Below are positions 10,018 to 41,873 of a stretch of 54,993 nucleotides of DNA, piece after piece. Each line of letters begins with the position of its first letter. Position 1 is the first letter of the stretch. Both the position numbers and the translations under genes were made by a program. Under the pieces are notes generated by a model. It had not been told where the DNA came from, searched no databases, and saw nothing but the letters and a program-made list of their open reading frames with translations. The stretch is from a virus (taxonomy: Duplodnaviria > Heunggongvirae > Uroviricota > Caudoviricetes): positions 1-54,993 of IMG/VR virus record IMGVR_UViG_2923302340_000009; one strand, given 5' to 3'.

Positions 10018-10022
10018 GGGAT

Positions 10023-15183: not shown

Positions 15184-15190
15184 AGCGTCC

Positions 15191-15586
15191 TCACATTTCA
15201 TAGGTAATGACATAAGTCAGACCGGCTGAACTCCACAGGCCCGCATCATCGTCGCGCCGGTAGTCATAGCCGCTGGCCACCATACTGGTGATCAAATCTG
15301 ACAGTGCCGGGATATCGCTCATCACCGGATAAATCCGGGACTCCATCCACGCATCCAGCTCTGAATCCGGCACCTGAGCAGGCAGGAAAACTTCGATATG
15401 CAGCTCCGCCTGCCAGGTATCGCTGTCCAGCTCTTCGCCCGTGTATTCAGCGCCGGTGAGATAAACGGCAACTGCCGGAAAATCCGCCTCATCAAAAACA
15501 GCGGGGCGACCATCAAAAAGCGTCGCCCCGGTGTCATGCTTCTCCAGTGCATCCAGTACGGCTGCACGGAGTTCAGTATGTTTCAT
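15191..15586 (-). CDS. U: tail terminator protein U
   Basis: 131 aa, matches lambda gpU. Confidence 0.93.
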
Positions 15587-16161
15587 CGCTTTATTACCAT
15601 TCTCAGTTGATGCTGCAGCGCATAGCCCAGCTCTTTCGGAAGACGTTCACGCCGTATCCGTTCAATATTCTGTTTAAACGCCGTGGTCAGCGGCACCGCC
15701 ATCGGGATTTTCACCACATCAATGGGGTAACGGTTTTTCCCGGCCACACGCTGCATGACATGCCAGCGGCCATTTTTCAGTTGCTGAATAAACGCGCCGG
15801 GAATACGACGGTTTCCCACCACAAGCACGCTGCCGCCACCTTTCAGGGCTGAACGCTGCCCCTTTTTACGACGCCTGCGTCGGGACAGGACAATCCGCGC
15901 GTTACCCTGCTTTATTACGGGCAAATCCCCCCGGTTAACCCTGATTCTGGCCTGCGGATTTTTGACCGTGGCCCTTTTCAGCCTGGCCCTTTCCTTTACC
16001 AGTTTCCGGCGTACCTTTGTCTCACGGGCAACCTGTGACGCAGACTGCGATATCGCGGATGACGCAACGCGGTTAATGGCCATTGCGGCGGCACCAGGCA
16101 CCGCCGTTTTGCTGATACGGCTGAGGTTTTCAACGGCCTGCTCAAGACCTTTTATGGCCAT
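15583..16161 (-). CDS. Z: tail completion protein Z
   Basis: 192 aa, matches lambda gpZ. Confidence 0.92.
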   Translation of the reverse strand: MAIKGLEQAVENLSRISKTAVPGAAAMAINRVASSAISQSASQVARETKVRRKLVKERARLKRATVKNPQARIRVNRGDLPVIKQGNARIVLSRRRRRKKGQRSALKGGGSVLVVGNRRIPGAFIQQLKNGRWHVMQRVAGKNRYPIDVVKIPMAVPLTTAFKQNIERIRRERLPKELGYALQHQLRMVIKR

Positions 16162-16172
16162 ACATCCCCCTT

Positions 16173-16523
16173 TCAGCGGCGACGGTTAACGGCAGGCGGC
16201 ACGCCACGCCCAAGCCAGAGATGACAGCTTCCGCCATCATCCGGCGAAACCCGGTCTATCCAGAAGTTTTCCTCACCGATGGTCAGCGTGTCTCCACGCC
16301 GCAGCTGCCGCACCTCATCAGTCCGGACAAACAGGGACGGGCTGGAGCCTTCAACGCGCACGCCCTGTCCGGCATAGCTGATATTTTCAGGGTCATCAAA
16401 AACACCACGTATCACAGCACCGGACTGCTCACCGGATGTCATGGTGGCTGACGTTCCCATGTACCCGCGTATCGTTTCATCAGCGCGGGCAATGGCAGCA
16501 TCGAACAGGTTATCGAAATCAGC
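16173..16523 (-). pseudogene. FII: head-tail joining gene FII separated from its GTG start and SD by an IS insertion
   Basis: Lambda FII codons 2 onward (ADFDNLFDAAIA...) abut the IS end; in-frame TGA inside the IS; first usable ATG is 22 codons in. Confidence 0.75.
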
Positions 16524-16553
16524 GTAAGCGGCTCGTCAGAACCGTATTGATAT

Positions 16554-18125
16554 TTACTGAGAGCTCAGATCAACTTTCCAGGGCAACAGATCGCGTACCC
16601 GGTTTGCCGGCCAGTCCTGGATATGTTCAATGACGTAGCGCAGCCACTTTTCTGGCTCCACATTGTTCAGACGGCATGTGCCGATCAGCGAGTACAACAC
16701 CGCCGCATGTTCACCACCGCTGTCGGAACCCGCGAACATCCAGTTTTTCCGGCCTACGGCCACTCCCCGTAAGGCGTTCTCTGCGATGTTGTTGTCGATT
16801 TCCACCCAGCCATTACTGCAGTACACGTTCAGTGCATCCCACTGTTTCAGCAGGTATGCGAACGCTTTTGCCGTATCTGAGTGACGCGACAGTGTTTTCA
16901 TCTGTTGCTGTATCCAGTCATACAGTGACTGCATCAGTGGCGCGGCTCTGGTTTTTCTTGCCGCCAGACGCTGTTCTGCTGAACAGCCCCGGACCTCTGC
17001 CTCGATGGCATACAGTTCACCGATACGCTGCAGGGCTTCCGTGGTGATGTCGGTGGGCGCTCTTGCATGCACATCGTGGATTTTTCTCCGGGCATGAGCC
17101 ATACACGCGGCTTCCGTTATTCTGCCGGATTCGTATAACGCCCGGTAACCACCGTAAGCATCGGCCTGAAGCACACCGCTGTAACCGGCCAGGTGATTTT
17201 GTGGATGGATACCTTTCCGGTCCGGACTGTACGCGAACCAGACCGCCGGGGGCATCTGTGAACCGGCGTTACGGTCATCACGGACGTAGACCCACAGCCG
17301 GGCTGTCCGGGTTTTACCGCTGCCCGGCTCCTGGACCGGGACGGGGATATCATCAGCATGGACTTTACCGGGCATCAGCACATACTGGCGCAGGACGTCA
17401 TACAGCGGCTCCAGTAGTTCAGCAACGGCACCTGTCCAGCGCCCCAGCGTGGCGCGGCTCAGCTCCACACCCTGACGGCGGTATATCTCTGACTGGCGGT
17501 ATAACGGCAGATGGTCTGCATATTTTCCGGTGACGACATGGGCCAGGAGCCCCGCTCCGGCATAACTGCGTGCAATGGGTTTTGAAGGTACTGGTGCCTG
17601 CACGATATGGTCGCACCGGCAACAGGCCAGTTTCGGACGTTGTGTTTCGATAACCTTAAAGGCGCTGCTGATAAGCTCCAGTTGCTCTGACACATCACAT
17701 CCCAGAGAACTGAGTTCACCACCACAGGCCGGACAGCATTCCTCTTCCGGCCGGATAACCCGGGTTTCACGGGGAAGTGAGGCCGGTAACGGTTTACGGG
17801 CTGAAGACTGGCGCAGGGCGGATGGCAGTACCGGGTCATATTGCTCACCCAGCGTTTCCGCCATTTCTTCCTGAAGTGCGCTGATTCGCTCCTGTGCTTC
17901 CTGTATCTGCCGTTCGGTTTTTGCGCGAAGTTTTTCTGAGCTTTTACCGAACTGCATACGCTGCAGTTTCGCAACCAGCGCCTTCAGCCGGTTGATTTCG
18001 GAAGCATAAGCCGCCACCCGCTGTGAGAGCAGGCGGTTGTATTCAGCCATCTGGCGTATGGTGTCCTGTTGCGTCTGCAACAGTGCCCGCAGGCGGGCGT
18101 TCTCATGAGCAAGTGAGGTGTCCAT
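16554..18125 (-). CDS. tnpC: IS66-family transposase TnpC
   Basis: 523 aa with N-terminal coiled coil and Cys-rich zinc-finger region typical of IS66 Orf3. Confidence 0.85.
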
Positions 18126-18144
18126 ATCCTCACTTTACAACGGG

Positions 18145-18492
18145 TTATATACGGATTCCAGCGCGTTCCGTTCGTTTCGGGTGCTTCCAGTTGATACCTT
18201 CAAGAAGCATGGATAACTGAGCCGGAGTAAGGTGCACCTTGCCGTCACGGGTGACTGGCCAGACGAAGCGGCCCCGCTCCAGGCGTTTGGTGAAGAGGCA
18301 CAGTCCGTCACTGTCAGCCCACAACACTTTTATCTGGTCACCCCGGCGTCCGCGGAAGATGAACAGGTGTCCGGAGAACGGGTCATCCTTCAGGACGTTC
18401 TGAACTTTTGATGCCAGGCCGTTAAAACCATTTCGCATGTCGGTGATACCGGCAACCAGCCAGATACGCGAACCGGCAGGGAGAGATATCAT
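18145..18492 (-). CDS. tnpB: IS66-family accessory protein TnpB (Orf2)
   Basis: 115 aa; position and size match IS66 Orf2. Confidence 0.8.
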   Translation of the reverse strand: MISLPAGSRIWLVAGITDMRNGFNGLASKVQNVLKDDPFSGHLFIFRGRRGDQIKVLWADSDGLCLFTKRLERGRFVWPVTRDGKVHLTPAQLSMLLEGINWKHPKRTERAGIRI

Positions 18493-19169
18493 CAGTGGCT
18501 GCTCCCTTTCATTTCGCGGATAAGTGTCTGTAATAACGCCGGCGTCAGTTTACCTTTAAGCCTGAGAGTTCCGGCCGGCAGAACCAGCTCGCAGCACAGA
18601 CTGTCTGGCAGTGTATTTATCTGTTCAGGTATCTGCACTGGTGCCGGGATTTTATTATCCGGCTCCGGCGTTAACGTCACGGGAAGTAGCGATGTTTCAT
18701 GTTCGCCGGGCGGCTGCAGGCCGCCGTTACGCCAGAGATGCCGCCAGTTAAAGAGCAGGTTATCGTTGATTCCGTTTTCCCGGGCGATCTGCGCCACACA
18801 GGCTCCGGGCTGCAGTGACTGCTCCACTAAGGCGATTTTAAACTCATAAGGGAAGTTGGGCCGCCGGGGACGTTTTTTTACCACGGGGGCTTCGGATATA
18901 ACGGTGCTTTCAGGACGTACGACTGGTACCGTGGAAAATTGTCCGTAAAGGCAGGCATCAAGTTCCTGCTCCGACATGCCTGCGGGCAAAGGCCACGAAA
19001 GGCCAGCTCTCCGAAAGCGCACGAACATACTACAAACGGTTGATTTTGGTACACCCAGGCGACGCCCGGCCACAACCCGGGGTAAATGTTCTTCAAAGTG
19101 AAGACGTAAAGCTTCAGTGATCCAGGTCCGATGTTTCATACGATAGTGTCCATTAAAAATGATGGACAT
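18492..19169 (-). CDS. tnpA: IS66-family accessory protein TnpA (Orf1)
   Basis: 225 aa with N-terminal HTH-like region; first ORF of the IS. Confidence 0.75.
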   Translation of the reverse strand: MSIIFNGHYRMKHRTWITEALRLHFEEHLPRVVAGRRLGVPKSTVCSMFVRFRRAGLSWPLPAGMSEQELDACLYGQFSTVPVVRPESTVISEAPVVKKRPRRPNFPYEFKIALVEQSLQPGACVAQIARENGINDNLLFNWRHLWRNGGLQPPGEHETSLLPVTLTPEPDNKIPAPVQIPEQINTLPDSLCCELVLPAGTLRLKGKLTPALLQTLIREMKGSSH

Positions 19170-19244
19170 TATTTTTGTAGAGCCGGAGGAAACAGACCAG
19201 ACGGTTTAAATGAGCCGGTTACAAATCAGCCACAGCGCCTCCCG

Positions 19245-19640
19245 TTATTGCATTCTGGCCAGGCCACGTTCTGTCATTTCGGCTGCCACACCGGCAGAGA
19301 CACGAAACGCCGTTCCCGGCAGCACAAATGCCACAGGTTTATCCCGCGTGGCGTGAAGTGCATCAGTATGCAGCGTCACCAGTGCCACGACCGTGACCAG
19401 AGCAGCCGTATCAATCACGGTATCCGGCTGCGCTGATACCACCTCATTTTCATGCCCGGTCAGCACATTTTCCCGGCTGAGAGGGGTGTCCTGACCGGCA
19501 CTGTCGCCCGTGTCATCAAGCTCTTCTTCCAGCTCTGCCACACGGAGCGCCAGTTCTTCTTTCGTCCCCGTCAGGCTGATATCACGGTTCAGTTGTTCAC
19601 CCAGCGAGCGGAGACGGGCAATCAGTTCATCTTTCGTCAT
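19245..19640 (-). CDS. FI: DNA packaging protein FI
   Basis: Matches lambda gpFI from MTKDELIARLRSLGEQL. Confidence 0.92.
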   Translation of the reverse strand: MTKDELIARLRSLGEQLNRDISLTGTKEELALRVAELEEELDDTGDSAGQDTPLSRENVLTGHENEVVSAQPDTVIDTAALVTVVALVTLHTDALHATRDKPVAFVLPGTAFRVSAGVAAEMTERGLARMQ

Positions 19641-19681
19641 GGACTCCTCCACAGAGAAACAATGGCCCCGAAGGGCCATGA

Positions 19682-20707: not shown

Positions 20708-20762
20708 AAAAAAATCCCGTAAAAAAAGCCGCACAGGCGGCCTTTAGTGATGAAGGGTAAAG

Positions 20763-23184: not shown

Positions 23185-23256
23185 TATGAAAAGACAGGAA
23201 AAAATAAAATTTAAAAACAGTACATTACGAATGCTCAGACCTATCGTTTAAAGGAG

Positions 23257-23280
23257 TCGCAATACACACTGCAATACACG
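23257..23280. repeat. two tandem copies of GCAATACAC motif near left island end (putative integrase/AlpA arm sites)
   Basis: tcgcaatacacac tgcaatacacg; same motif three times at right end 33894..33947. Confidence 0.5.
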
Positions 23281-23619
23281 ATTATTTATAAGATGAGCGG
23301 CATCCGTCATAAAGCTGGTGGATGCTTTTTCTATGCATATATGCACAGTTTTAGTGGGCGTTAATGTCGATATAGGGATCCCCATATCGAGATTGGATAC
23401 CTGGCTTTTTTCCGGTTAACCTTTAATCAGGCTGGTGGGCTTTACCTGTTTTGTATGAGTGGTCATCATGACCATGTCATAACAAAAACCCCATATTCGT
23501 GGTTTTTCTGTGTCGGGCTATTCTGTCGTTGCTGTGCTGATTTGGCTGGTGGGCTGAATCATCATTACGGCGATGCAGCTATGTAGACGTTCCGGCCTCC
23601 TCAAATTGAGGATTGTGGA

Positions 23620-23980
23620 AGAATCAATGGGTTAGTCTTACTTTCCCGACATCCCCCAATGGGGGTTTTCGAAACAATCAATAGCTTAGGCTTACTTCCC
23701 CGATTTCCTGCATTGCAGGTTTTCGAAATAATCAATGGGTTAGGCCATCGTGCAATTTTGCACTTTGCCAGCCAGCGCAATGTCGCGTTATCAGTCCTCA
23801 GATGTGAGGGATGTAGCCAGCTTTTCCCCCAGTGGGGGATATCCAGCACCGACGGCTTAACTGTGCGTGCCAGCACAAGGTAGCCTTGAACTACTTACTG
23901 CATCCCATCTTACAGGCCGTGCCTTCCTGCTTAACTTTTTGCAATGCAACAAGTCAGCCAGCGCAATTTTGCGTTATCGG
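23620..23980. repeat. array of about 54-bp periodic repeats (aatcaatRgSttagg) each followed by a short GC palindrome and ttttcgaaa
   Basis: Three units starting near 23622, 23676, 23730; palindromes cccccaatggggg, cctgcattgcagg, gtgcaattttgcac, cccccagtggggg; second family cagccagcgcaatNNNgcgttatc twice. Confidence 0.5.
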
Positions 23981-23993
23981 GAATATCAGCAAG

Positions 23994-24275
23994 TTACCGC
24001 CGCAATCGTTCCGGCTTCTTCCACTGGTAAGTATTTTTCGCGCTCTCCCTCCGTTGTTGAGAAAGGCGACGATATGCCAGCAACTCAAGGACTCTTGTTC
24101 GTATGTTGCGCATATCCACGCCGTTAAGCTCAATACCGTCACGGCGCATCACCTCAGCCACTACACGCACATAATTATCTGCGGTCACGCTGTCCGGCTG
24201 CGTGGCCTGTTCGTCATGCTGCTTGCTGATTCCACAAGCACGGCGGATTAATCGCAGTATTTCGGATTCAGTCAT
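23994..24275 (-). CDS. hypothetical protein (island packaging module)
   Basis: 93-aa ORF 11 nt downstream of TerS-like gene; no recognisable family. Confidence 0.45.
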   Translation of the reverse strand: MTESEILRLIRRACGISKQHDEQATQPDSVTADNYVRVVAEVMRRDGIELNGVDMRNIRTRVLELLAYRRLSQQRRESAKNTYQWKKPERLRR

Positions 24276-24286
24276 AGCGTACTACG

Positions 24287-24829
24287 TTACTTATCTTTAT
24301 TCGGCTGCAACTTATCCGGTACGTTTCCGGCAGTTTCCATCAGATAATCGGACAGCATCAGCGGTATGTTTTCGTCAAGTTTTGCGCATGCGTTACAGGC
24401 TCTGATAACTTCTTTTTTCAGTCCATCCAGCATAGACGGCTTCATGTCGGGAAACTTCCTTGTCATGGCAAGCGGCAGGCTGTCCATGATTGAAGAAATC
24501 TGACTCGCCAATTTTGAAAGCACGTATATACAAAACGCTGTATCAATAACGTCGCCGCGTTCGCGCTCGTTTTTAAGCTCCTGCGCCTCTGCCTGTGCTG
24601 TCAGCAATCTGATCCTGACTCGTAGGAGTTCATCATCATCAATCTCGCCTTTGTCGTCTGTAATCTGGTTAATTGCATTGCTAACCCGATTGTCTATTAC
24701 GCTGGCAACATCATAAAACGCCTCGCGGCCTTTACGTTCAACGGGAGTCACTCCCCACTTGTCGAACGCTGTCGCACTTACACGGCAGCTTTGCGCCATG
24801 TTTTTTTTGTTCATCAGGTGCGATTTCAT
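24287..24829 (-). CDS. terminase small subunit-like protein (lambda Nu1 homologue) encoded by the island
   Basis: Aligns with lambda Nu1 core LTRAQADAQELKN...AFCTFVLSRIAGEIASILDGIPL; ATG at 24829 preceded by GGGGA; lies downstream of island cos. Confidence 0.75.
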   Translation of the reverse strand: MKSHLMNKKNMAQSCRVSATAFDKWGVTPVERKGREAFYDVASVIDNRVSNAINQITDDKGEIDDDELLRVRIRLLTAQAEAQELKNERERGDVIDTAFCIYVLSKLASQISSIMDSLPLAMTRKFPDMKPSMLDGLKKEVIRACNACAKLDENIPLMLSDYLMETAGNVPDKLQPNKDK

Positions 24830-24940
24830 CAATATCCCCACTTAAGTAATGTTTCAGGTTGGTGTATTGACTTTATCTTTTCCTTTTTATTCATAGAGAT
24901 AGAGCGAACAACAAAACCACCACCAGCACCCGAAAAAGGC

Positions 24941-25010
24941 TCATAAATAGCGAAAACCCGCGAGGTCGCCGCCCCGTAGCCTACCGGATCACCGGAAAGG
25001 ACCCGCCAGC
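24941..25010 (-). other. island cos site with canonical lambda-type cosN (GGGCGGCGACCT) and lambda-like cosQ-side flank, divergent cosB side
   Basis: Plus strand aaatagcgaaaacccgcg AGGTCGCCGCCC cgtagcctaccggatcaccggaaaggacccgcc (cosN 24963..24974); paralogous to prophage cos at about 37700. Confidence 0.75.
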
Positions 25011-25030
25011 CAGAGCGGGCCCTAATTTCA

Positions 25031-25414
25031 TCAACCAATCAGCTTATAGCGACCATCCCGTGCATTGCGGCGTACACGCTCAATCTTGAGGCATAGCGCC
25101 GCATCTGGCTTTTTTGGGACAGGTACGCGGCAATATTCAGAAGCGCGAGGAATATTATTTATCCAGTCGATCACTTCACTTAAATACCAGGCCTTACGCC
25201 CTTCCGTAACCTGCACACGCTCCGGGAACTCTCCACTAGCCTCAAGGTTTAGCAGTGTACGACGACTCAGGGTTGTAATTTCCATCACCTGATTCATATC
25301 AACAAGGCGCTCGCTTAAACACATTTTGTCAGCGATAGCTTTTAATTCCTCTACAGCTGGATTCGGGTACATCATTTCGGCAATTGGCTTAAGGTCATTG
25401 TAATCATTCTGCAT
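25031..25414 (-). CDS. AlpA-family HTH protein (second copy, in packaging module)
   Basis: Motif ITTLSRRTLLNLEASGEFPERVQVTEGRKAWYLSEVIDWI; strong SD AGGGGGA. Confidence 0.65.
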   Translation of the reverse strand: MQNDYNDLKPIAEMMYPNPAVEELKAIADKMCLSERLVDMNQVMEITTLSRRTLLNLEASGEFPERVQVTEGRKAWYLSEVIDWINNIPRASEYCRVPVPKKPDAALCLKIERVRRNARDGRYKLIG

Positions 25415-25425
25415 TGTATCCCCCT

Positions 25426-25767
25426 TTACACACGAGCCAGCGGCTGAACAGAAATACCTGAGCCAACAAACGCTGCAACCTTTACTGACAGTTCTTTAAC
25501 AGACTCAGGCCAGTTCAGAGCATCAACATTTAAGACACCTGTCTTATAGACCTGAGCCTGTGTTTTTTTCGCGGTGTCGATTTGTACAGCGGAAACATAA
25601 ACCGCTTTACCTACGCTCGAACCATCCCATACCACCAGTGCACCTGTTGCATCTTCCTGCATCAGTGGCGTAAATGCAGGAATTACCCCTTTATTAGCTG
25701 AAAATATCCCCAGCGTAGTCACCAGTGCTTCAGTGCCAGCCATGAGTTCAGTGTAATGAGTAGCCAT
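25426..25767 (-). CDS. head decoration protein, lambda gpD-like (island paralogue)
   Basis: 113 aa alignable to lambda gpD (PAFTPLM...VWDGSS...); SD AGGGGGAG. Confidence 0.75.
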   Translation of the reverse strand: MATHYTELMAGTEALVTTLGIFSANKGVIPAFTPLMQEDATGALVVWDGSSVGKAVYVSAVQIDTAKKTQAQVYKTGVLNVDALNWPESVKELSVKVAAFVGSGISVQPLARV

Positions 25768-25776
25768 TGCTCCCCC

Positions 25777-26823
25777 TTAGCCAATGCGAACGGTAACAAA
25801 ACGATTGATGCGGGCCGGTATTGGCTGTGGTGCTGAATGTGTCTGCACATATTCAATAGCCGGATCACCAGGCACAATATAGTTTTTCGGTGCAAGTTCG
25901 GCTTTAGTCAGCCCCATTCGGATTAGCTCCGGATCCTGAATACCGCCATAGGCGACAATCCCCTGAAGAGCCGTATTGCCAAGCACCATCAAATCAGGAT
26001 CAAGGAAATGTTTTTCTGTTCCGTCCTCGTCGGTATAACGCCCGCTGTAAACAACAATCGCAACATCGCCCATATACCCTTTAAAACTCACCGAATCACC
26101 AAGGTCTTTAAGGGCCGTTTCCAGTTCGGAATTAGAACCACGACGGGTATCCAAAGCCTCTTTTATCGCTCTGAATGAACGGTATTTCTTCCATACATTA
26201 CCACCCATAATGATGATATTAGTGACGCCCTCACTAAATTCTGCGTAGCTCTCAATATCATCATTTGGATCAAAAGTTTCTTTATCCTTACCTGACCACT
26301 CAGTACCGCCAGACTGAGTGATGATATTTTGTGGTTTTATATTCCAGTCCAGCTCATAACGTTCAATACCATCGCCCTCAATGATATTTTTCCCCGTTGT
26401 GATTGCCTGAACAGCAAGCCATTCAATACGTGCACGAATAGCTTTAGCCTGATTTACAATCGCCTGTTTAACTTTAATATTACGCGCCCCAAAAGCATTG
26501 TATTGCTCAGGTGACACACCAGCAGGGCGCACAGCTAACTTATTTGGATCAATGCTGCTTTTCGGCTTCATATAACCTGGACGAATTGTTTTTGATTCGT
26601 ATCCCTCATCTCGTGAAACTTTACTGCCCACCATAGGAGAGCAAAACGCCGCGATCGGGATATTTGGATCGTCGATCGTATCAAGAATAATGTCTCTCGA
26701 TTCAAACATTACCGAGCGAGTGAAAAACAAACTGGTAAACAACGCATTTAATTTTTTTTGCACATCTTCAGCATTAGCCACCTGCACAAGCTGTGTAGGC
26801 GAATATAAATCAACCATACTCAT
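25777..26823 (-). CDS. major capsid protein, lambda gpE-like (island paralogue)
   Basis: Roughly half identity to lambda gpE by eye across C-terminal two-thirds (QSGGTEW...LDTRRGSNSELETA...VAIVVYSG); start at MSMVDLYS with SD AAGAGGA. Confidence 0.8.
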   Translation of the reverse strand: MSMVDLYSPTQLVQVANAEDVQKKLNALFTSLFFTRSVMFESRDIILDTIDDPNIPIAAFCSPMVGSKVSRDEGYESKTIRPGYMKPKSSIDPNKLAVRPAGVSPEQYNAFGARNIKVKQAIVNQAKAIRARIEWLAVQAITTGKNIIEGDGIERYELDWNIKPQNIITQSGGTEWSGKDKETFDPNDDIESYAEFSEGVTNIIIMGGNVWKKYRSFRAIKEALDTRRGSNSELETALKDLGDSVSFKGYMGDVAIVVYSGRYTDEDGTEKHFLDPDLMVLGNTALQGIVAYGGIQDPELIRMGLTKAELAPKNYIVPGDPAIEYVQTHSAPQPIPARINRFVTVRIG

Positions 26824-26988
26824 CCTCTTTACATTCATTACAAATAATTGTGAATATATTCTATTACCGATGTCTGCTATGCGAACACATGCAACCAAGT
26901 GCAATGTTGTATAAAATATGCCGTAACAACTTCAGTGCTGATAATTCGTGTTAATGTATTTACTTCCTTTGGTCGGGATTTATGTAGC

Positions 26989-27028
26989 ATGCCGGAAAAT
27001 CTATTTTTTTCCGGCATCTTTTTGTTTG
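26989..27028 (+). terminator. plus-strand hairpin with T-tract between island ssb and capsid genes
   Basis: atgccggaaa / tttccggcat 10-bp stem followed by ctttttgtttg on plus strand; both neighbouring genes are on minus strand. Confidence 0.35.
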
Positions 27029-27034
27029 CAGAAT

Positions 27035-27457
27035 TTAAAACGGTATATTATCGCCGTACGGATCATCATTCCCCGACTGTTGTTTTGCCCTGTTCAGTGC
27101 GTCAGTGGCCTGCCCCTGCTGGCCTTTTTTGCCGCCCGGTCGCGCCGTTCGCGCACTGATTACGCTGTCTGCGATAACCTGCCAGCCCCGCCGCGTTTCG
27201 CCGTTCTGGCCTGTCCACTGGCTTACCTGCATGTTACCCGCCACGCTCACCAGTTCGCCTTTGTGGTGTTTTGCCAGTGCGTCGGCCTGTCTGCCAAACG
27301 CCAGGACGGATAACCACATCGTCGCCGTTCCGTCATCTGCCTGGCTGCACGGCAGGGGAACCGCCATACTCGCCATCGCCATTTGTGTCCCTTTGCTGGT
27401 GGTCTTTAACTGCGGGTCAGCCACCAGCCGCCCGTAAGCCGCTATCTGTGCTGTCAT
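27035..27457 (-). CDS. ssb: single-stranded DNA-binding protein (SSB-like)
   Basis: 140 aa with Gly/Gln-rich linker and acidic C-terminal tail DDPYGDNIPF typical of SSB. Confidence 0.75.
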   Translation of the reverse strand: MTAQIAAYGRLVADPQLKTTSKGTQMAMASMAVPLPCSQADDGTATMWLSVLAFGRQADALAKHHKGELVSVAGNMQVSQWTGQNGETRRGWQVIADSVISARTARPGGKKGQQGQATDALNRAKQQSGNDDPYGDNIPF

Positions 27458-27768
27458 GCTGTCTGCTCTCCGGTTTTAACATTGATGGTTGTCACCTGTT
27501 CCGCTTCGGCAATCTCCCGTTCTGTCAGCGTGGCAAAGTTTGCCGCTGCTGTGGTCATAAATGCGCTTATCAGGTCGGGATGTTCCTTCGCGTATCCTGC
27601 CCGTGTGTGGTGGTCTATCGCTTTGATTGCCACCTTTAAGGAAAGCTCTGTCATGTCTAACGCTTTATATTTTGCCTGTGTTCTGTCTCTGCGAATTTTG
27701 GTCATTTGTCGCCCCTGATTCATGTTTTCGGCTGGCATGTTTGTTAAGTGATTTTTATGTATGCGCAT
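27454..27768 (-). CDS. hypothetical protein translationally coupled to ssb
   Basis: 104-aa ORF; stop overlaps ssb ATG (ATGA). Confidence 0.45.
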   Translation of the reverse strand: MRIHKNHLTNMPAENMNQGRQMTKIRRDRTQAKYKALDMTELSLKVAIKAIDHHTRAGYAKEHPDLISAFMTTAAANFATLTEREIAEAEQVTTINVKTGEQTA

Positions 27769-27819
27769 TTATTTTCACCCCCCCTCGTTTAAAAAGTTTT
27801 TAGTTGTGCCTCCCCCCCT

Positions 27820-28045
27820 CTACCCATCTACCCGAATGCTCATCATGTCAGTAATGGCGCCGCTTTCAGCGGGTAGATAGCTTTTTTGACTCCTCTACCT
27901 GCCGTCTACCCTGCTACCTGAAACTGATAAAATCAGGTAGAAGAGGTAGAGAGCTTTTATTAGCCTTCTACCTAGCCCTATATCCACTTATCATGTTGAA
28001 TAATATGCATTTATTTCGTTCAGGTAGATGGGGTAGATGGCTTTT
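27820..28045. repeat. iteron cluster (GGTAGA / TCTACC motifs, about 12 copies in both orientations); putative island replication origin
   Basis: ctctaccc, atctaccc, gggtagat, aggtagaagaggtagag, ggtagatggggtagatgg immediately upstream of primase gene. Confidence 0.7.
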
Positions 28046-28053
28046 ACAAAAAA

Positions 28054-29808
28054 TTATAAAAACGCGTCGCAATCGTCTGTTGTAATTGCGTTGGTCTGCG
28101 TTACTCCCTTAACTTTTCGCGTAATATATTCATGCCCGTAAACTTTCGCCGCTGGCTTCATGGCCTTGCTGAACTCAGCCACGTTTAGCGGTTTGCTCCT
28201 GCCCGCGTATGCCATAAACGCCAGATAGACGCGGTAAAGGCTGTTCCTGGTCGTGTACTTCACTGAATCACCACCGCCACCCATCATCAGGCCGCGCGCT
28301 TCCTCCAGAAAATTCAGGAACTGGCAAAACTCAATAACCGGATCCGTCTGTTGCTTTATTGCCAGTGCTTCATCACCGTCACGCTGTTCCAGTAGTAAAG
28401 CCCGTGCCTTCTCAGGGTCGGTAAAGTTCGCCAGCAATCGGCGGATAATAACGGGGATTTCAGCCGCAATCTTTTCCGGTAGCTCCCTGTCTTTTTCGGC
28501 CTCACTGACGATATTGTCGAAACGGAAAATCACGCGACGACGTGCCACACCTCCGGCCCGTTCGGTGAATATCATCGGGTTGTTGTTGGTCGCCAGCACC
28601 ACCGCCCTGATTACCGCCGTGAAACGCTTTTCATATTTCGGGTTAATTTCCACGGGGTCGCCGCCTGTGATTTTCTTGATGCCCGTTCCTTCGCCTGTAT
28701 ATTTCGGCTGGTCAGCCAGGACGATAAGACGACTCCCGACAACCTGCGCACGTCCACCAGCATCATCAAGCGATGTCATTTCAGCGCTTACCGTGTTCTG
28801 TTTCCCTGCCAGAAGGCTGGCTATGTGTGTGAATGTACTTTTACCGCTCCCGCCGTCTCCGGTGGCCTCAATAAACATCTGCCAGTCGTACCGGTTCGCC
28901 ATAATCATGTACAGCGCGGCACATATACGCATCATCTTGCGCGGGTCTTTTCCGGCTGCGTGCTCAAGCCATTTATGAAAGTTTGGCGCGTTATCGCGGA
29001 TGTTCTCCCCTGGTGCTGGTGGCGTGTACTCAATGCCGTTGTGCGTGGTGATCCAGTTCTCCGGCGTGTGCGGGGAAAATTCCCCCGTTTTCAGGTCAAG
29101 CGCACCATTGGCGAACGGCAGCAAATCGCCAGACGGCTCGCCCATTGGTTCGGCAATAACTTTTAACGCTTCCACGGCGTTATTGATTACGCGCTTGCTG
29201 AAAGTGGCCCTGTGCTCTGAATAGATCGCCACCATTTCGCGGCTAAGTTCCATTGTGCTGACCGGACACCATACCCCGCCGCGCCATACGTGAACGATTT
29301 CACTTTCAGGATGTACGCAAACGCCATCAAAGCGATCGGCAAGCAACTGCGCGCGCTCACTGTCCGCCATCTGCGAAAGTTGCGCCTTTTGCTTTACCGG
29401 AAGCTCAATGACCAGACCATCAGAAAGATTCTGGCGTTCACGGGCCAGATATTCGCGCCAGGTCTGCACCTCCTGGCCGTGCATACCCTCAGGATAAAAA
29501 TTTGCATCCTGTACGCCTGCTGCCGCCAGCTTCTGACCAATCGCCTTTATCATTACAGGCGCAAGATATCCGGCCCTGTATATGCGTGCTGATTTTCGGC
29601 CTTCCGGCACAATTTGCAGATTATCCAGTTCGGATAGCTGCTGCTCCCCAAGCCACACAGGAGGCTCATTATCTCCGGCCATACGCGCATCATGTTCCTG
29701 CCATTGTTTCGCGTGTGCCCAGGCATCACTACCCGCAAAAATAATTACTTCTGTTCCTTTGTGTTTTATGCCGCGTGACTGCTGTTTTACGTTCGGTGCC
29801 AGTTTCAT
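28054..29808 (-). CDS. primase-helicase (P4 alpha-like replication protein with P-loop NTPase domain)
   Basis: 584 aa; Walker A GDGGSGKST; adjacent iterons; translationally coupled to upstream ORF. Confidence 0.75.
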   Translation of the reverse strand: MKLAPNVKQQSRGIKHKGTEVIIFAGSDAWAHAKQWQEHDARMAGDNEPPVWLGEQQLSELDNLQIVPEGRKSARIYRAGYLAPVMIKAIGQKLAAAGVQDANFYPEGMHGQEVQTWREYLARERQNLSDGLVIELPVKQKAQLSQMADSERAQLLADRFDGVCVHPESEIVHVWRGGVWCPVSTMELSREMVAIYSEHRATFSKRVINNAVEALKVIAEPMGEPSGDLLPFANGALDLKTGEFSPHTPENWITTHNGIEYTPPAPGENIRDNAPNFHKWLEHAAGKDPRKMMRICAALYMIMANRYDWQMFIEATGDGGSGKSTFTHIASLLAGKQNTVSAEMTSLDDAGGRAQVVGSRLIVLADQPKYTGEGTGIKKITGGDPVEINPKYEKRFTAVIRAVVLATNNNPMIFTERAGGVARRRVIFRFDNIVSEAEKDRELPEKIAAEIPVIIRRLLANFTDPEKARALLLEQRDGDEALAIKQQTDPVIEFCQFLNFLEEARGLMMGGGGDSVKYTTRNSLYRVYLAFMAYAGRSKPLNVAEFSKAMKPAAKVYGHEYITRKVKGVTQTNAITTDDCDAFL

Positions 29809-30104
29809 TTTTTACCTCTGAATCCGTTAATCATGGTTTTCATTTTCTGGATATTTCCCCACGCTTTTTCCCTGCTGATGGGCTTACTGCGGGGTGCGGC
29901 ATATACCAGGGAAAAATCACGCCGGAACTGATAAACAGGCATCACGCAGTCATAGCTATACCCCTCACGGCGGTAAGTGATGCGCCGTTCTGCCACGCCT
30001 TTAATCGTTACCGTGCCGCCGTATTTATCGCGGTAAATATCGCCGTTCATAAATTCAGGTCGAGCGGGGCCGCTGGCAATAAAGCCAGAATTTTTCATTT
30101 CCAT
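29805..30104 (-). CDS. hypothetical protein
   Basis: 99-aa ORF whose stop overlaps primase start. Confidence 0.45.
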   Translation of the reverse strand: MEMKNSGFIASGPARPEFMNGDIYRDKYGGTVTIKGVAERRITYRREGYSYDCVMPVYQFRRDFSLVYAAPRSKPISREKAWGNIQKMKTMINGFRGKK

Positions 30105-30121
30105 ATTATTTATTCCTCGAC

Positions 30122-30343
30122 TTAACTCGACTTATTTGATAGCAGGGCACTATTTATTGCGTCATTGAGTTTTTCTGCTGATTCATCAATAAGTGACAAC
30201 AGGCCATAAGCAATATTTGCATCTTCATTGTCATTTATGCAATCAAGCCACATATTTAATATTGCTTTTGCTGAATTATTTAAAGTTAATGAACTTTCTG
30301 CACATGCTAACAATTTAAAAAAGACTTCCCGTTCTGTATTCAT
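30122..30343 (-). CDS. hypothetical small protein
   Basis: 73-aa ORF in tightly packed three-gene array. Confidence 0.4.
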   Translation of the reverse strand: MNTEREVFFKLLACAESSLTLNNSAKAILNMWLDCINDNEDANIAYGLLSLIDESAEKLNDAINSALLSNKSS

Positions 30344-30535
30344 TTAATCCCCCACCAGCTTACTTTCTTCCTCAATCAAAAAACTAGCGACACTTCCCGA
30401 AAGACGCGCCAGTAGGCTCGCCAGTGCGGATATATCAGCATCTGTAATTTTGTTCGGGTATACCTCAAGAAGGCGGCAAATAATTTCTGTCTGGTGCGCA
30501 CGTTCAGCGGCTTCGTGTAATGTAATTTCCTGCAT
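30344..30535 (-). CDS. hypothetical small protein
   Basis: 63-aa ORF abutting neighbours. Confidence 0.4.
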   Translation of the reverse strand: MQEITLHEAAERAHQTEIICRLLEVYPNKITDADISALASLLARLSGSVASFLIEEESKLVGD

Positions 30536-30720
30536 TAATGCACCTCTTTTAATTCATACACTGCTGAAATAATGACTTGTGATAAGCCATATTCTGATGA
30601 TTCGCTTCTCACCGCAGCAATAGCCGTCTGAACATTAACAGCCTTCACATTCTGAGCGATACCAATTGTGTGGCCTATTGGGTTAACAGCTCGGGCAAAT
30701 ACACGGAAGGTTTTAAGCAT
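30535..30720 (-). CDS. hypothetical small protein
   Basis: 61-aa ORF with SD GGGAG; first gene of minus-strand array. Confidence 0.4.
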   Translation of the reverse strand: MLKTFRVFARAVNPIGHTIGIAQNVKAVNVQTAIAAVRSESSEYGLSQVIISAVYELKEVH

Positions 30721-31001
30721 GACTCACTCCCTGGCGGATTTTTGCAGCGAATACAGCAACACAACCGGACGGGCAACGGCTACGCGCTTCGCGTTCCGTC
30801 CAGGCGGTTACGTGGATGATTTGAGATTCTCCGGCACTCAGTGCCAGAAAACGCCACACAAAGGCCGTTTGTGTGTGTACAAGGTGTGGTATATGATTTA
30901 CAGCAACCATAACGGCTCCTAGTTTACGTTGTTGGTTAGACGCCCCGTATGTGTTCCCAGCACTGCGGGGCGTTGCTCTTTGTATTTCAACAATCCTTTC
31001 G

Positions 31002-31034
31002 GTGTGTTTCATGTTATGAGCGCATGAAACACAC
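31002..31034. promoter_or_regulatory. 12-bp perfect inverted repeat (gtgtgtttcatg N9 catgaaacacac) in divergent intergenic region; putative operator
   Basis: Lies between minus-strand small-gene array and plus-strand gene at 31101; half-site gaaacacac recurs at about 31071. Confidence 0.5.
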
Positions 31035-31100
31035 GTCAAGGCTTTTTGTATTTCTTTTTTTGTGTATACTGAAACACACCGATGATTAGGAGTTTCAGAA

Positions 31101-31406
31101 ATGGCAACGGCTAACAAAAACGCAAAATCACAACTGACAACTGTCAGAGTCCCACTAGATGTTATGCAAGGGATGGAATCCGTTAAGCTGGACGGTGAAA
31201 GCAATGCCGGATTTATCGTAACCGCCATGCGCGGAGAAATAGCCCGCCGCCAAGCAGAAGGCAGCGGAGAAAATCCCCTTGTGTCGTCACTGGATGCCCT
31301 GGCTAAGGTCGAACAAATCGGCATCAAAGCAGCCGAGGAGATCGGGCAACTCGTCACCGTCGCGCGTGAAGAACTCCAGCGACGCAAGGTCAAAGAGCAT
31401 GAATAG
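31101..31406 (+). CDS. hypothetical protein, candidate island regulator
   Basis: 101-aa ORF with SD AGGAG; divergent from small-gene array; downstream of operator-like repeats. Confidence 0.5.
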   Translation: MATANKNAKSQLTTVRVPLDVMQGMESVKLDGESNAGFIVTAMRGEIARRQAEGSGENPLVSSLDALAKVEQIGIKAAEEIGQLVTVAREELQRRKVKEHE

Positions 31407-31463
31407 CCAATATCAGCGCCATAGTTTGAGGAACGCAGGCGCATTGCTTTACAGGACAGCACC

Positions 31464-31643
31464 ATGAGCGACACAGAATCAACCAAAACACCATCACCAA
31501 CTCGTAAGAGACGACGCAAAAATATAGCGCATGAACATGAATCAGAAAGATTCGCACCTTGTTCGTTTGCTCTTGAGAAATTCCTTAAAGAGCACAGGAA
31601 AAAGCTCTCGTTGCAAACCTTGGAACGAACCAAATCTGACTGA
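31464..31643 (+). CDS. hypothetical small basic protein
   Basis: 59-aa ORF (not in track, below 60 aa) MSDTESTKTPSPTRKRRRKN...; followed by terminator. Confidence 0.3.
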   Translation: MSDTESTKTPSPTRKRRRKNIAHEHESERFAPCSFALEKFLKEHRKKLSLQTLERTKSD

Positions 31644-31709
31644 TCACATTGCCCACCAGCCGCAAATGTGGCATTGTTGGTGATGCTTTTGTTTTCCCTT
31701 GTTCCCACT

Positions 31710-31740
31710 GGCGACCCTTTTGCGGTCGCCTTTGTTTTGT
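31710..31740 (+). terminator. rho-independent terminator for plus-strand island genes
   Basis: ggcgacc-cttttgc-ggtcgcc hairpin followed by TTTGTTTTGT. Confidence 0.55.
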
Positions 31741-32318
31741 CACTGAATGCGGTTACCAAAGTAAAACTCAGGCTGATATTCACGTATCAGCGTTTTTTCT
31801 TCTTCCTCCAGCTCACGCTTTTTGCGCTTACATGCCTGTAGCTCCCTCCCCTTCTCGCTGGCACTTATTTGATATTGCTCTTTACGGCGGGAAAAATCCT
31901 GTAATGCACCCCACGGGATACCATAAGTCCCCGTTTTTCTGATACCTGGTATCACATTTCTGAATACCCAGTTACTGAAACGATGAGCAAATGTGCCAGG
32001 CGTCGTTGCTTTGCGGCTGCGGGCTATTAGTTTGTAGAAACCTGACTCAGAGATAATTCTCATATTCTGATTTCCTCCTGGGGTGTAAGTTAAATTTACT
32101 CCCTTTTCATCATCATCAAGCATCTGCAACGCCGTACGCGAATTGGTTAGTTCCAGCGCAGCACAAACATCTTTTGCAACAAACCACGGATCGCCGTTCA
32201 GATACACCACACGAACGTTCACACTATCAAAGCGCAGAACGACGAGATCACGAATATCGCAGAATTTTTTCACTGGACGAGCGTACCCCTTGCCCGTCAC
32301 GGCAATATTTTTATTCAT
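31740..32318 (-). CDS. BRO-N domain protein (antirepressor-like)
   Basis: N-terminal VVLRFDSVNVRVVYLNGDPWFVAKDVCAALEL resembles Bro-N/KilA-N family. Confidence 0.65.
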   Translation of the reverse strand: MNKNIAVTGKGYARPVKKFCDIRDLVVLRFDSVNVRVVYLNGDPWFVAKDVCAALELTNSRTALQMLDDDEKGVNLTYTPGGNQNMRIISESGFYKLIARSRKATTPGTFAHRFSNWVFRNVIPGIRKTGTYGIPWGALQDFSRRKEQYQISASEKGRELQACKRKKRELEEEEKTLIREYQPEFYFGNRIQ

Positions 32319-32334
32319 CGCGTTTTTACCTTAT

Positions 32335-32361
32335 AGACAAAAAACCCCTCGTGATGAGGGG
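32335..32361 (-). terminator. rho-independent terminator downstream of alpA
   Basis: On minus strand cccctcatcacgagggg followed by TTTTTTGTC. Confidence 0.55.
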
Positions 32362-32374
32362 CATTATTTACTGG

Positions 32375-32632
32375 TTATTGCTGTTTTGTTTTTCCAGGTT
32401 TCCATCCAGGATGCCACTCACCACGGATCCATGCCTGAACCTCTGAAAGTCGATACCCTGCAGCACGTTCACCGATCTTGATACGTCGCGGGAATTTACC
32501 TGCCTGCTCCATTTTCCAGCGTGTTGAGTTTGCCAGCGTGGTAAGTGCTATGCACTCTTTTTCACGAATGAACCGATCAATGTCCTTCATTGTGCGCAAA
32601 TCGTTTTCATCAACAAGAGAATAAATTGCCAT
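32375..32632 (-). CDS. alpA: AlpA-family transcriptional regulator/excisionase-like protein
   Basis: 85 aa; ...FPRRIKIGERAAGYRLSEVQAWI motif; immediately downstream of integrase. Confidence 0.75.
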   Translation of the reverse strand: MAIYSLVDENDLRTMKDIDRFIREKECIALTTLANSTRWKMEQAGKFPRRIKIGERAAGYRLSEVQAWIRGEWHPGWKPGKTKQQ

Positions 32633-32633
32633 A

Positions 32634-33875
32634 TCACACCACCTCTTTATTAAGCTCGATAACGTTGTTGTTAAATCCTGCTATCGTATTAAGGTAATTA
32701 ACCCACATATTAAGCACCTCAAGTTTTTTCTTTATATGCCTGCTTTTATTGTAAACACCAGCAACCCCTTTCACTTTATGACCTAAAAGAAGTTCGACAA
32801 TATAAGGATCCGCCCCCATATCATTAAGCGTAGTGGAAAATGTGCGCCTGAAATCATGTATGCACCACAAGCCATTAGTATCATGACCAAGACGCCTGCA
32901 TATTCTGTTTGCAGCCCCTGTTATTGTCGCCCTTTGCAAAGCACAACCGACAACATAACCGCGATTTTTTGTTTCTGCGTAAAGATTAACGATCCATTGT
33001 TTTATTCCGTCAGGAACAGGCCTTACTATAGCCTCCTTGTTTTTGCTGTGCTCTTTTGGGACTGTCCATACCCAGTTTTTTAAATCCCATTCGTCCCAGG
33101 TGGATAGCCTCGCCTCCTGCTGTCGGCAACCAAACACCAGGCAGATAACCATTATTCTTCGGTTATATATTGATGACAGAGTTAGCAAATTATTACCGTA
33201 AGCATAAGACCATACATCAGCGGTTTCATTGATATTAAGAACGCGATCCCTTATACCGGATGAGCGCCCGACATAACTTACGTTAATATCTCCAAAGGGA
33301 TCGCACGCGATGTATTGCCTGACGCGACAAAAACGCAACGCCTGTTTGATATCAAGAAAAATTGCACCAGACATAACAGGCGCATTTTTTTTGATCCTGT
33401 CAAAGACGGTAAGCCATGTGTGTAATTTGCACTGTTCTATAGCCATATCACCGATATAGGGGAAGATATGCTTTTCAAATCGTTTTATTAAATATTCATG
33501 CTCTTTTCTGGCTGTTGTGGCGTGATTGTCGTACCAGTAAAACAGCGCATCCCTTACGGTCACTGGTTGCATAGTTTTTTCGGCAGCAAGTTTTATTTGC
33601 CTGCGGGGGTCCAGATTTTCAGCCAGCCATTCACGGCACTGATCACGCATGCGCCTGGCCGTTGCAAGAGACATGTCAGGATAGCGACCAAGTGTAAGCC
33701 ATACCGGAGGGAATTCCCTGCCACCAAGACGATAGTAAAAAACAAAGCTGATCCCCCCAACCATGCTTACACGCACAGACAACCCGCGCCCATCCGCTAT
33801 TGTTTTTTGTTTGTCCTGCCGTTTTCCGACAAGACTCTTTAACAGTTTGTCACTGAGTTTGTTTTCAATAGCCAT
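32634..33875 (-). CDS. int: P4-type tyrosine integrase
   Basis: 413 aa; P4-like N-terminal arm-binding region and C-terminal HDFRRTF...LLGH...Y catalytic region; adjacent to island end. Confidence 0.85.
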   Translation of the reverse strand: MAIENKLSDKLLKSLVGKRQDKQKTIADGRGLSVRVSMVGGISFVFYYRLGGREFPPVWLTLGRYPDMSLATARRMRDQCREWLAENLDPRRQIKLAAEKTMQPVTVRDALFYWYDNHATTARKEHEYLIKRFEKHIFPYIGDMAIEQCKLHTWLTVFDRIKKNAPVMSGAIFLDIKQALRFCRVRQYIACDPFGDINVSYVGRSSGIRDRVLNINETADVWSYAYGNNLLTLSSIYNRRIMVICLVFGCRQQEARLSTWDEWDLKNWVWTVPKEHSKNKEAIVRPVPDGIKQWIVNLYAETKNRGYVVGCALQRATITGAANRICRRLGHDTNGLWCIHDFRRTFSTTLNDMGADPYIVELLLGHKVKGVAGVYNKSRHIKKKLEVLNMWVNYLNTIAGFNNNVIELNKEVV

Positions 33876-33893
33876 TAAAAGCCCTCAAGAGAT

Positions 33894-33947
33894 TTGCAAT
33901 ACACACCCATCCCGATCGCCAATTTGCAATACACATTGCAATACACA
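33894..33947. repeat. three direct copies of TTGCAATACACA next to integrase start (putative arm-type binding sites)
   Basis: Copies at about 33894, 33924, 33936; same motif at left island end. Confidence 0.55.
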
Positions 33948-34023
33948 AAACCGCGAAAAACTGGAAGGGTGATGAACGGTCATCAAAAGCATGGAAAACG
34001 ACATTCCAGACGCAGCAAGGGTT

Positions 34024-37004
<2,981 letters not shown>

Positions 37005-40025: not shown

Positions 40026-40829
40026 ATGACAGAAAAAGATAACATTGGTAAGTTAATTTGGCATATTGCTTGCGATGAATCTGGCATTGATGGGCAACGT
40101 TTCTACGGCTTTGGCAGTCTGTGGATGAAGTACCAACGCCGTGGGGATTTCTGTCAACTAATCAGAGAACTACGCAGCAAACATGGTTTTTTTGAAGAAA
40201 TAAAATGGCAAAAAGCCCATTCAAAAAGATACTCTGAATTTTATCTTGAGCTGATCGACTTATTCTTTAGAGTTCCTTGGCTAGCTTTTCATTGTATCGT
40301 GGTTGAAAAATCAATAGTAAACAAGGCATTTCATAATGGGGATTATGACCTGGCAAGGAGAAAGCACTTCACAAATCTCATTACCACAAAAATTAGCTCT
40401 GTAATTTCTGCACACCCTGAAAGAGACAGTTACTTCAGGATTGAAGTTGATCCTATCGCATCTCGTTATAAAAAGGCCGATGAAGAACTAAATGTTATTG
40501 CCAATAACATATTGAATAGAAAATTTGGTCGTAAAGGGATAATCAGCAGTGTAGTGACAAAAGACTCTAAAGCATCTGAAAACATTCAGCTAGCCGATTT
40601 TTTCTTAGGTGCGGTTATGTGCGCATATCAAGGAAAAGCTTCATCTGAAGCCAAAATAAGAGTATCAAACTATGTTGCTTCATATTTAGGCTGGGATCAT
40701 TTGCAATATGATACATGGCACACTGAGAGAAAATTTAATATCTGGTATTTTTATGATAAAACTCGAGGGCCACGAGATATAGAAACTCAAAATGTTAGCT
40801 TAAAGTATCCACTTCCCCAAAAGAAATAG
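40026..40829 (+). CDS. DUF3800-like protein (moron between Q and lysis genes, opposite strand)
   Basis: N-terminal DESG motif (IACDESGIDG) and C-terminal QLAD motif (IQLADFFLGAV) characteristic of DUF3800 as I recall it. Confidence 0.6.
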   Translation: MTEKDNIGKLIWHIACDESGIDGQRFYGFGSLWMKYQRRGDFCQLIRELRSKHGFFEEIKWQKAHSKRYSEFYLELIDLFFRVPWLAFHCIVVEKSIVNKAFHNGDYDLARRKHFTNLITTKISSVISAHPERDSYFRIEVDPIASRYKKADEELNVIANNILNRKFGRKGIISSVVTKDSKASENIQLADFFLGAVMCAYQGKASSEAKIRVSNYVASYLGWDHLQYDTWHTERKFNIWYFYDKTRGPRDIETQNVSLKYPLPQKK

Positions 40830-41050: not shown

Positions 41051-41740
41051 TCAATCCAGTTTTGCAATACTTTGCTGTGAAAATGTCGTCTTTTGTTTTG
41101 AACGTGTTCTCGTTACAAGCAATAAAGCTTCGCTATCAAGCTGTAGAAAAATGTGCTTCATTGCAACCCAGCGTTCAGTAAATGTCTCAGACCAGTTTTT
41201 TGATGTCACTCCCACCAGTGATGCCAGCTCCTGGTATTCATAGGTCTTACGCCCTGCCAGCTCATTCTTCACATCCTGTGCCGCCAGCCAGATCAACTTC
41301 TTCAAACGTTCCAGTGTCTTACCTGCAATTTTCCTGGTACCCAACAGAGTCTTAAACTCGCTCCATACCCACTGCGTTATGGTGACCTGATGTTCCCAGC
41401 GAACACTTTCGCTGTAACTCCACAGCAACCACGCTTTCTGATGTTCTTCGAGAGACAGAACCGCGCGGCGCCATGAAGATGTTGAGAACTCAACCTGGCT
41501 GACCAGTGCAATGGATGAACCTTTTGCGTACGACTGCTTACCGGAAATCGGCGGATTATCCAGCGTAATCATCTTGCCCGTTACCTCATCCAGAATGCGC
41601 GGCTTCTTTCGTTTATATGTACCAGTATCAAATTGTGCATGCTCCAGCCAGGCTTCAAGCTGGCCTTTCGTTGCTCCGCTCAAATCAGCAGTAGCCACAA
41701 TGAGTTGCTCGCGGACATACTGTAAATATTGGGTATTCAT
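41051..41740 (-). CDS. putative late-gene antiterminator Q-like protein
   Basis: 229 aa at the Q position between rusA and lysis cassette; start at internal ATG with SD AAGGAG; assignment by synteny. Confidence 0.55.
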   Translation of the reverse strand: MNTQYLQYVREQLIVATADLSGATKGQLEAWLEHAQFDTGTYKRKKPRILDEVTGKMITLDNPPISGKQSYAKGSSIALVSQVEFSTSSWRRAVLSLEEHQKAWLLWSYSESVRWEHQVTITQWVWSEFKTLLGTRKIAGKTLERLKKLIWLAAQDVKNELAGRKTYEYQELASLVGVTSKNWSETFTERWVAMKHIFLQLDSEALLLVTRTRSKQKTTFSQQSIAKLD

Positions 41741-41873
41741 GCGGCAGCTCCTTTCAGTGTTTTGGCGTAATTCTTCAGTATTCGGTAATCGGTCAAAACA
41801 GAACCGGGGAAACGATATAAGCGCAGACGCCACCAGCGGTGGCGAAGAAGTTCTGCCATATAAAACTCAAACA

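Follow-up and report, generated by a model that had tools for sequence, protein, structure and literature searches.

The question raised by this locus is what has become of FII, a gene of a lambda-like prophage that codes for the head-tail joining (stopper) protein, and what its interruption means for the prophage and for a satellite embedded in the portal gene of the latter. The stretch of DNA analyzed (the window: 54,993 nucleotides, positions 1 to 54,993 of the IMG/VR virus record IMGVR_UViG_2923302340_000009, Caudoviricetes) amounts to almost the whole of one prophage of this kind in inverted orientation, bounded by the tail fibres on the left and by the integrase (53830..54993) on the right. 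Within it, an element that an earlier note, made from the sequence alone, had assigned to the IS66 family lies between the start and the body of FII. The evidence presented below makes it very probable that an intact copy of the insertion sequence (IS) ISCro1 was transposed into the 5′ end of FII, with duplication of 8 bp, and left the gene effectively null.

The IS proper occupies positions 16524..19222 (2,699 bp), with its ends and all three genes intact. The extent given in the earlier note, 16516..19230, was real, but it comprises the IS plus both copies of the target-site duplication. These copies, located at 16516..16523 (left) and 19223..19230 (right) and given, like the terminal repeats below, without strand, read AAATCAGC on the plus strand; the left one is GCTGATTT on the gene strand and corresponds to FII nucleotides 4-11. 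On the plus strand, the left junction (16516-16539) reads ...GGTTATCG AAATCAGC followed across the insertion point by GTAAGCGGCTCGTCAG..., and the right junction (19210-19239) reads ...ATGAGCCGGTTAC followed by AAATCAGC CACAGCGCC... The duplication is thus exact on alignment at both sides, as had been claimed, and the chance of finding a matching 8-mer at two prescribed positions is about 1.5e-5. Excising 16524..19230, i.e. the IS and one copy of the repeat, yields a junction identical to the uninterrupted FI-FII of Escherichia coli 510016. To both sides of the IS (6147-16523 and 19224-37771), the window also follows the gene order and sequence of the collinear prophage of E. coli CFSAN029787, the IS being the sole large difference between the two in the morphogenesis region, so the proposed comparison with isolates lacking the IS speaks for the insertion. 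Because the empty-site sequence matches that of E. coli 510016 and is accompanied by an exact 8-bp duplication, insertion by transposition can be considered proven.

The terminal inverted repeats are imperfect, as described in the earlier note, where the ends were quoted correctly; the repeat extends to 22 nt, of which 17 are complementary. The left arm, at the tnpC-proximal end (16524..16545), is GTAAGCGGCTCGTCAGAACCGT and is 77% complementary to the right arm, at the tnpA-proximal end (19201..19222), the reverse complement of which is GTAACCGGCTCATTTAAACCGT. Both arms lie exactly at the ends of the element and start with GTAA, as is usual for IS66-family terminal repeats; the first 12 nt of each are GTAAGCGGCTCG at the left end and, as the reverse complement, GTAACCGGCTCA at the right end. 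The three genes are on the minus strand in the order tnpA-tnpB-tnpC, the ATG of tnpB overlapping the tnpA stop codon (TGATG) and a 19-nt spacer preceding tnpC. Finer details of this overlap and spacer arrangement in IS66 tnpABC were reportedly described by Han et al. (2001) and Gourbeyre et al. (2010).

Concerning the proteins encoded, tnpA (18492..19169) gives an accessory helix-turn-helix protein of 225 aa that matches HTH_Tnp_1 (Pfam) and NF038385 (291.7 bits versus a cut-off of 150); tnpB (18145..18492), an accessory protein of 115 aa that matches PF05717 (TnpB_IS66, 5e-40) and NF033819; and tnpC (16554..18125), a DDE transposase of 523 aa that matches PF03050 (DDE_Tnp_IS66, 8e-104) and NF033517 (479.6 bits versus a cut-off of 180), as well as zf-IS66, LZ_Tnp_IS66 and DDE_Tnp_IS66_C (Pfam). 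All three open reading frames (ORFs) are intact. The membership of the element in the IS66 family, correctly recognized before, is given by TnpA, TnpB and TnpC, all above the curated Pfam and NCBIfam cut-offs; the gene order, the repeats and the 8-bp duplication also fit, and the three-ORF tnpABC layout is typical of the family (PMC6778807).

In sequence comparisons, the best matches to the IS were 99.8% identical over 100% of its length and carried the RefSeq label 'IS66-like element ISCro1 family transposase', together with tnpA and tnpB. Full-length copies were found by megablast in 1,492 of 5,426 complete E. coli genomes, in chromosomes and plasmids. The lengths of the ORFs equal those of the RefSeq proteins. 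With respect to the copies present in E. coli 2020C08-115 and in the enterotoxigenic E. coli (ETEC) strain 120899, the window IS shows 62-63 nucleotide differences, concentrated in tnpA codons 145-188, and the products differ by 3 (tnpC), 0 (tnpB) and 14-15 (tnpA) residues. Since the three ORFs are full length and differ by few residues from those of other copies, the copy in the window looks intact. The differences in tnpA are clustered (window 18600..18760), with 10 of 15 substitutions in codons 145-160, which suggests recombination of a short patch more than scattered drift. In Citrobacter rodentium ICC168, ISCro1 has expanded more than any other IS and numbers 24 copies (PMC3072379); in E. 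coli ST131 it has been found at the afa promoter, where its insertion alters gene expression (PMC8764528).

The insertion has left FII in two parts, both on the minus strand. The orphaned start (19223..19244) consists of the Shine-Dalgarno sequence GGGAGG (19243..19238), the GTG start codon (19233..19231) and the rest of the first 11 nt of the gene (GTG GCT GAT TT). The body (16173..16523), recognized by PF05354, contains codons 2-117 and the stop codon, without start codon or Shine-Dalgarno sequence. The break occurs after FII nucleotide 11, inside codon 4; it had been placed after codon 3, which was right as to its nearness to the FII start but not as to the precise point. Because the 8-bp target was duplicated, the downstream copy keeps codons 2-117 and loses only the GTG and the Shine-Dalgarno sequence, which lie now 2.7 kb upstream of the FII body, as had been noted. 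The rebuilt gene begins, on its own strand, with GGGAGG-CGCT-GTG GCT GAT TTC GAT AAC, and the same Shine-Dalgarno/GTG sequence heads the intact, annotated FII of E. coli 510016 and CFSAN029787. Its 117-aa product is identical to phage lambda gpFII in 115 of 117 residues (PDB 1K0H and virion cryo-electron microscopy entries), and its membership in the gpFII family is given by PF05354 and by its location between FI and Z in the late operon.

Reading from the IS junction, no ATG, GTG or TTG occurs before FII codon 23. The ATG at this codon (16460..16458), already indicated in the earlier note, is the first one in the FII body; it has only GGGTAC in front of it and is located 94 nt beyond the tnpC stop codon. 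A TGA within the IS end (16536..16538, minus strand) is in the frame of FII, five codons upstream of the FII remnant (...TGA CGA GCC GCT TAC, and then GCT GAT TTC...). A translational fusion of the IS with FII was considered and is ruled out by this in-frame TGA (16538..16536).

In lambda FII mutants, filled heads and unattached tails are known to accumulate without being joined. In the structure of the lambda neck at 3.5 Å, gpFII residues 4-24 form an alpha-helix, and six of these helices ring the gpW beta-barrel (PMC10721106). Since a product started at Met23 would be without this head-binding helix, FII is most likely, to judge from its sequence, an effectively null allele. The element, its family, its exact insertion and the loss of the start signals are observations; that the prophage would be defective for head-tail joining is expected by analogy with the genetics and structure of lambda.

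The sequence of events was then most probably as follows. A copy of ISCro1 transposed into the 5′ end of FII with duplication of 8 bp of target, and the insertion parted the ribosome-binding site and the GTG from codons 2-117. The stop codon in the IS end blocks read-in translation, with no canonical start ahead of codon 23. Upon induction, the prophage would make DNA-filled heads and tails, which, by analogy with lambda FII mutants, would remain unjoined unless gpFII were provided in trans, and the helper-embedded satellite in the portal gene would be stranded likewise, unless gpFII came from elsewhere. The other morphogenesis ORFs, i.e. Nu1, A, C, D, E, FI, Z, U, V, G, H, M, L, K, I and J, are all open. 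This, together with the perfect duplication and the intact IS genes, fits with a recent event in a helper that was otherwise competent.

Several points weigh against this account or limit it. The ISfinder rule for isoforms is a nucleotide identity of at least 95% to the reference, and the assignment of the IS to ISCro1, an element already catalogued, is to be read as resting on RefSeq annotation and not on the ISfinder reference. Low-level initiation may occur at ATG23, at CTG (codon 7) or at ATT (codon 12). The defect could be masked by gpFII from further lambdoid prophages of the genome; a 1,001-bp query across the left IS junction (FII, part of Z and the IS end) matched 4,335 of the 5,426 E. 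coli genomes, a count that includes matches owed to its IS portion, and FII-like DNA was present at a median of two places per matching genome. This abundance favours the interpretation that the defect is only conditional, a co-resident lambdoid prophage complementing gpFII in trans, such that the particles of both prophage and satellite would be infectious or transducing. In the same direction points the precedent of the defective lambdoid prophages of O157 Sakai, which are packaged and transferred through inter-prophage complementation (PMC2669165). This interpretation is possible but not probable; the view is, however, limited to 55 kb of the genome, and what is at stake is the cellular consequence of the feature, not its identity. 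Much less credit can be given to the idea that a truncated gpFII is made from the ATG at codon 23 and still joins heads to tails. It is true that a 95-aa ORF starting MGTSAT is open at 16460..16173, and that its product would keep the beta-sandwich, the beta-hairpin and the C-terminal loop that contact gpU (PMC10721106). But this product would be without residues 1-22, that is, nearly all of helix 4-24, which in its hexameric ring accommodates the gpW barrel (PMC10721106); the sole purine-rich stretch before ATG23 is a GGG three bases away, poor both as a Shine-Dalgarno sequence and in its spacing; and the distance to the tnpC stop codon makes translational coupling unlikely. A functional truncated protein is thus very unlikely. 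Finally, IS copies are a classic source of misassembly, and the exact junctions are absent from the other collections searched, so it was considered whether the assembler had misplaced an IS copy. Both junctions bear the exact 8-bp duplication, however, and when the flanks are rejoined they restore an intact gene perfectly, while a collapsed or misjoined repeat would yield no target duplication; such an artefact is next to impossible.

A different matter is whether the insertion was random, or whether the 5′ end of FII is either a true hot spot for ISCro1 or a place where knock-outs are selected for. The exact IS-FII junctions were absent from all 5,426 complete E. coli genomes, as well as from the IMG/VR viral contigs and the JGI metagenome contigs, and a gapped pattern search of the viral contigs gave no ISCro1 end at 30 nt or less from the start of FII. 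Among the complete genomes, only strain 2020C08-115 had ISCro1 at the start of FII (6609-9323 of its locus): it is inserted 8 bp further in, in the same orientation, with duplication GGTTATCG. As the two insertions are 8 bp apart and the IS copies differ at 63 positions, that of 2020C08-115 is an independent event. In several ETEC genomes, ISCro1 is inserted in the neighbouring gene Z, with duplication GGTTAACC (ETEC 120899 locus 2667-5381). The insertions of 2020C08-115 and ETEC 120899 are in lambda-like prophages without embedded satellite, and in both the IS is co-oriented with the late operon. The independent event 8 bp away and the third one in Z, all co-oriented, are in favour of a hot spot, as is the weak consensus derived from 35 further ISCro1 insertion sites. 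These were collected with a scan for the right end of the IS and were mostly contig ends from the draft genome of Escherichia sp. MOD1-EC7003, which appears to carry about 30 copies of ISCro1. The consensus of the 8-bp duplication is G-N-W-T-N-W-N-S, roughly palindromic and weak, with A/T at positions 3 and 6 in 30 of the 35 sites each, and, in 24 of 35, a G lying two bases outside the duplication (p about 7e-8). The weight matrix built from these sites, however, ranked the three phage sites just 651st, 262nd and 331st among 10,566 in the local 5.3 kb, i.e. in the top 2.5-6%. Also against a hot spot are the occurrence of ISCro1 at the FII start in one out of 5,426 complete genomes and in no viral contig, and the fact that the other two prophages are without embedded satellite and that the shared orientation of the three events is not significant. 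The possibility of a strong target hot spot was thus rejected, as the consensus is real but weak and the phage sites score modestly, and a non-random insertion, by target preference or by selection, is improbable. Sequence preference explains little, and the near-coincidence of the insertions is to be taken as an anecdote. The broader proposal that ISCro1 prefers FI/FII-Z of lambda-type late operons, and that recurrent, possibly selected knock-outs disarm prophages, stranding here a satellite, would be decidedly doubtful.

Returning to the insertion of ISCro1 in FII, the genes next to it are complete. FI (19245..19679, minus strand; PF14000, 1e-52), which codes for a DNA-packaging protein, is intact immediately upstream of the FII start, and Z (15583..16161, minus strand), which codes for the tail completion protein and is collinear with the annotated genes of 510016 and CFSAN029787, is intact as the next gene downstream of FII. 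A consensus scan of both strands over 16100-19700 gave no sigma-70-like promoter, and none of the sites within the IS on the gene strand resembled a terminator, both of which are weak negative evidence. An outward promoter and a polar terminator in the IS were therefore set aside, as the scan gave no site to support them, with the same reservation. As no terminator-like site occurs on the gene strand within the IS, the late transcription of Z-J from the Q-antiterminated promoter is probably not blocked by it; the Q gene is at 41833..41051.

The second interruption in the morphogenesis region is of another nature. The split of the portal gene pointed out in the earlier note is real, but it was counted there with FII as a lesion of head-tail joining, while it affects head assembly and packaging. 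The satellite lies between the portal fragments, at 23185..34083, with junction cores at 23172-23184 and 34071-34083. Bases 1-780 of the intact portal gene of ETEC 120899 align to window positions 22405-23184, and bases 768-1602 align to 34071-34905; an imperfect 13-bp core, CATA[C/A]ATCGCCTT, is present at both junctions, 10,899 bp apart, and the two fragments cover positions 2-242 and 238-354 of the Phage_portal_2 profile (Pfam). The genes of the satellite, on the minus strand and co-oriented with the late operon, include those of a tyrosine integrase, a Bro-N protein, an AlpA-like regulator, a D5_N-type primase and a single-stranded DNA-binding protein, and, as captured late genes, those of an E-like capsid protein (42% identical to helper E), a D-like decoration protein and a Nu1-like small terminase. 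At least nine complete E. coli genomes contain the same helper-satellite composite, with FII intact. A replacement FII within the satellite was considered and rejected, as no FII-like gene was found in it by Pfam. With no such gene found, the insertion should leave the satellite stranded together with its helper, except where gpFII is provided by another prophage. By analogy with published elements (PMC10111431), the portal split would be a programmed interruption, and excision of the satellite should restore the gene. The lesion of FII is a mutation, essentially irreversible, and so distinct in kind from the portal split. A paper on 'Prophages integrating into prophages' (PMC8112680) makes no mention of portal or satellites.

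Some other features of the window were also observed. Near the late end of the satellite, inside the junction with the C-terminal fragment of the portal, there are three tandem 54-bp repeats (23592..23753; 65-72% identical), each with a short palindrome, e.g. CCTCAAATTGAGG; a cos, packaging or replication-related site is possible. In the early-left region, between the recombination genes and the integrase, there is a DndB-like ORF (51869..52933, plus strand; PF14072, 4e-46), possibly an accessory gene or one related to defence. A 436-aa protein with a weak match to AAA_22 (43329..44639, minus strand) and a 267-aa DUF3800 protein (40026..40829, plus strand) are encoded where the window differs from the otherwise collinear prophage of CFSAN029787, and are likely accessory cargo.

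Altogether, the observation from which this analysis started is confirmed and its interpretation is supported with minor corrections: a known IS, acting by a known mechanism, produced an ordinary knock-out of a prophage gene. For annotation purposes, FII should be considered a pseudogene interrupted by ISCro1, and the prophage, defective or dependent on complementation for virion completion. Of the two lesions of the helper, that due to the satellite in the portal gene should be reversible and that due to the IS in FII is essentially irreversible, and neither helper nor satellite is likely to spread without outside help. Otherwise, the case is a routine one: decay through insertion of an IS is for prophages a common route to defectiveness. 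Its sole mildly unusual aspect is that the prophage inactivated here serves as helper to an embedded satellite, itself of a published class.

When the locus is compared with known systems, the IS shares with ISCro1, which was originally named in Citrobacter rodentium ICC168 and is widely distributed in E. coli, its length of 2,699 bp (also that of the 2020C08-115 and ETEC 120899 copies), three genes of equal size, the ends, the 8-bp duplication and a nucleotide identity of 97.7-99.8% to copies annotated as ISCro1 in RefSeq. Nothing of substance sets it apart; the window copy is of a minor sequence variant, at a site unseen in the collections searched. The satellite matches the helper-embedded PICI (HE-PICI) elements of site group B:Phage_portal_2:241 (Tommasini, Mageeney and Williams 2023, PMC10111431) in being a 10,899-bp, integrase-bearing element inside a lambda-type portal gene and co-oriented with it, its site matching profile positions of about 238-242. 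Unlike the lesion due to the IS, the integration of such elements is by site-specific recombination and should be reversible on excision. As for the prophage as a whole, the IS elements of O157 prophages are mainly IS629. The defective prophages of O157 Sakai are comparable to that of the window in that an IS inactivates a virion assembly gene in an otherwise complete lambdoid prophage, with complementation by siblings (PMC2669165), and they differ from it in the family of the IS and in that the prophage studied here is also the helper of an embedded satellite.

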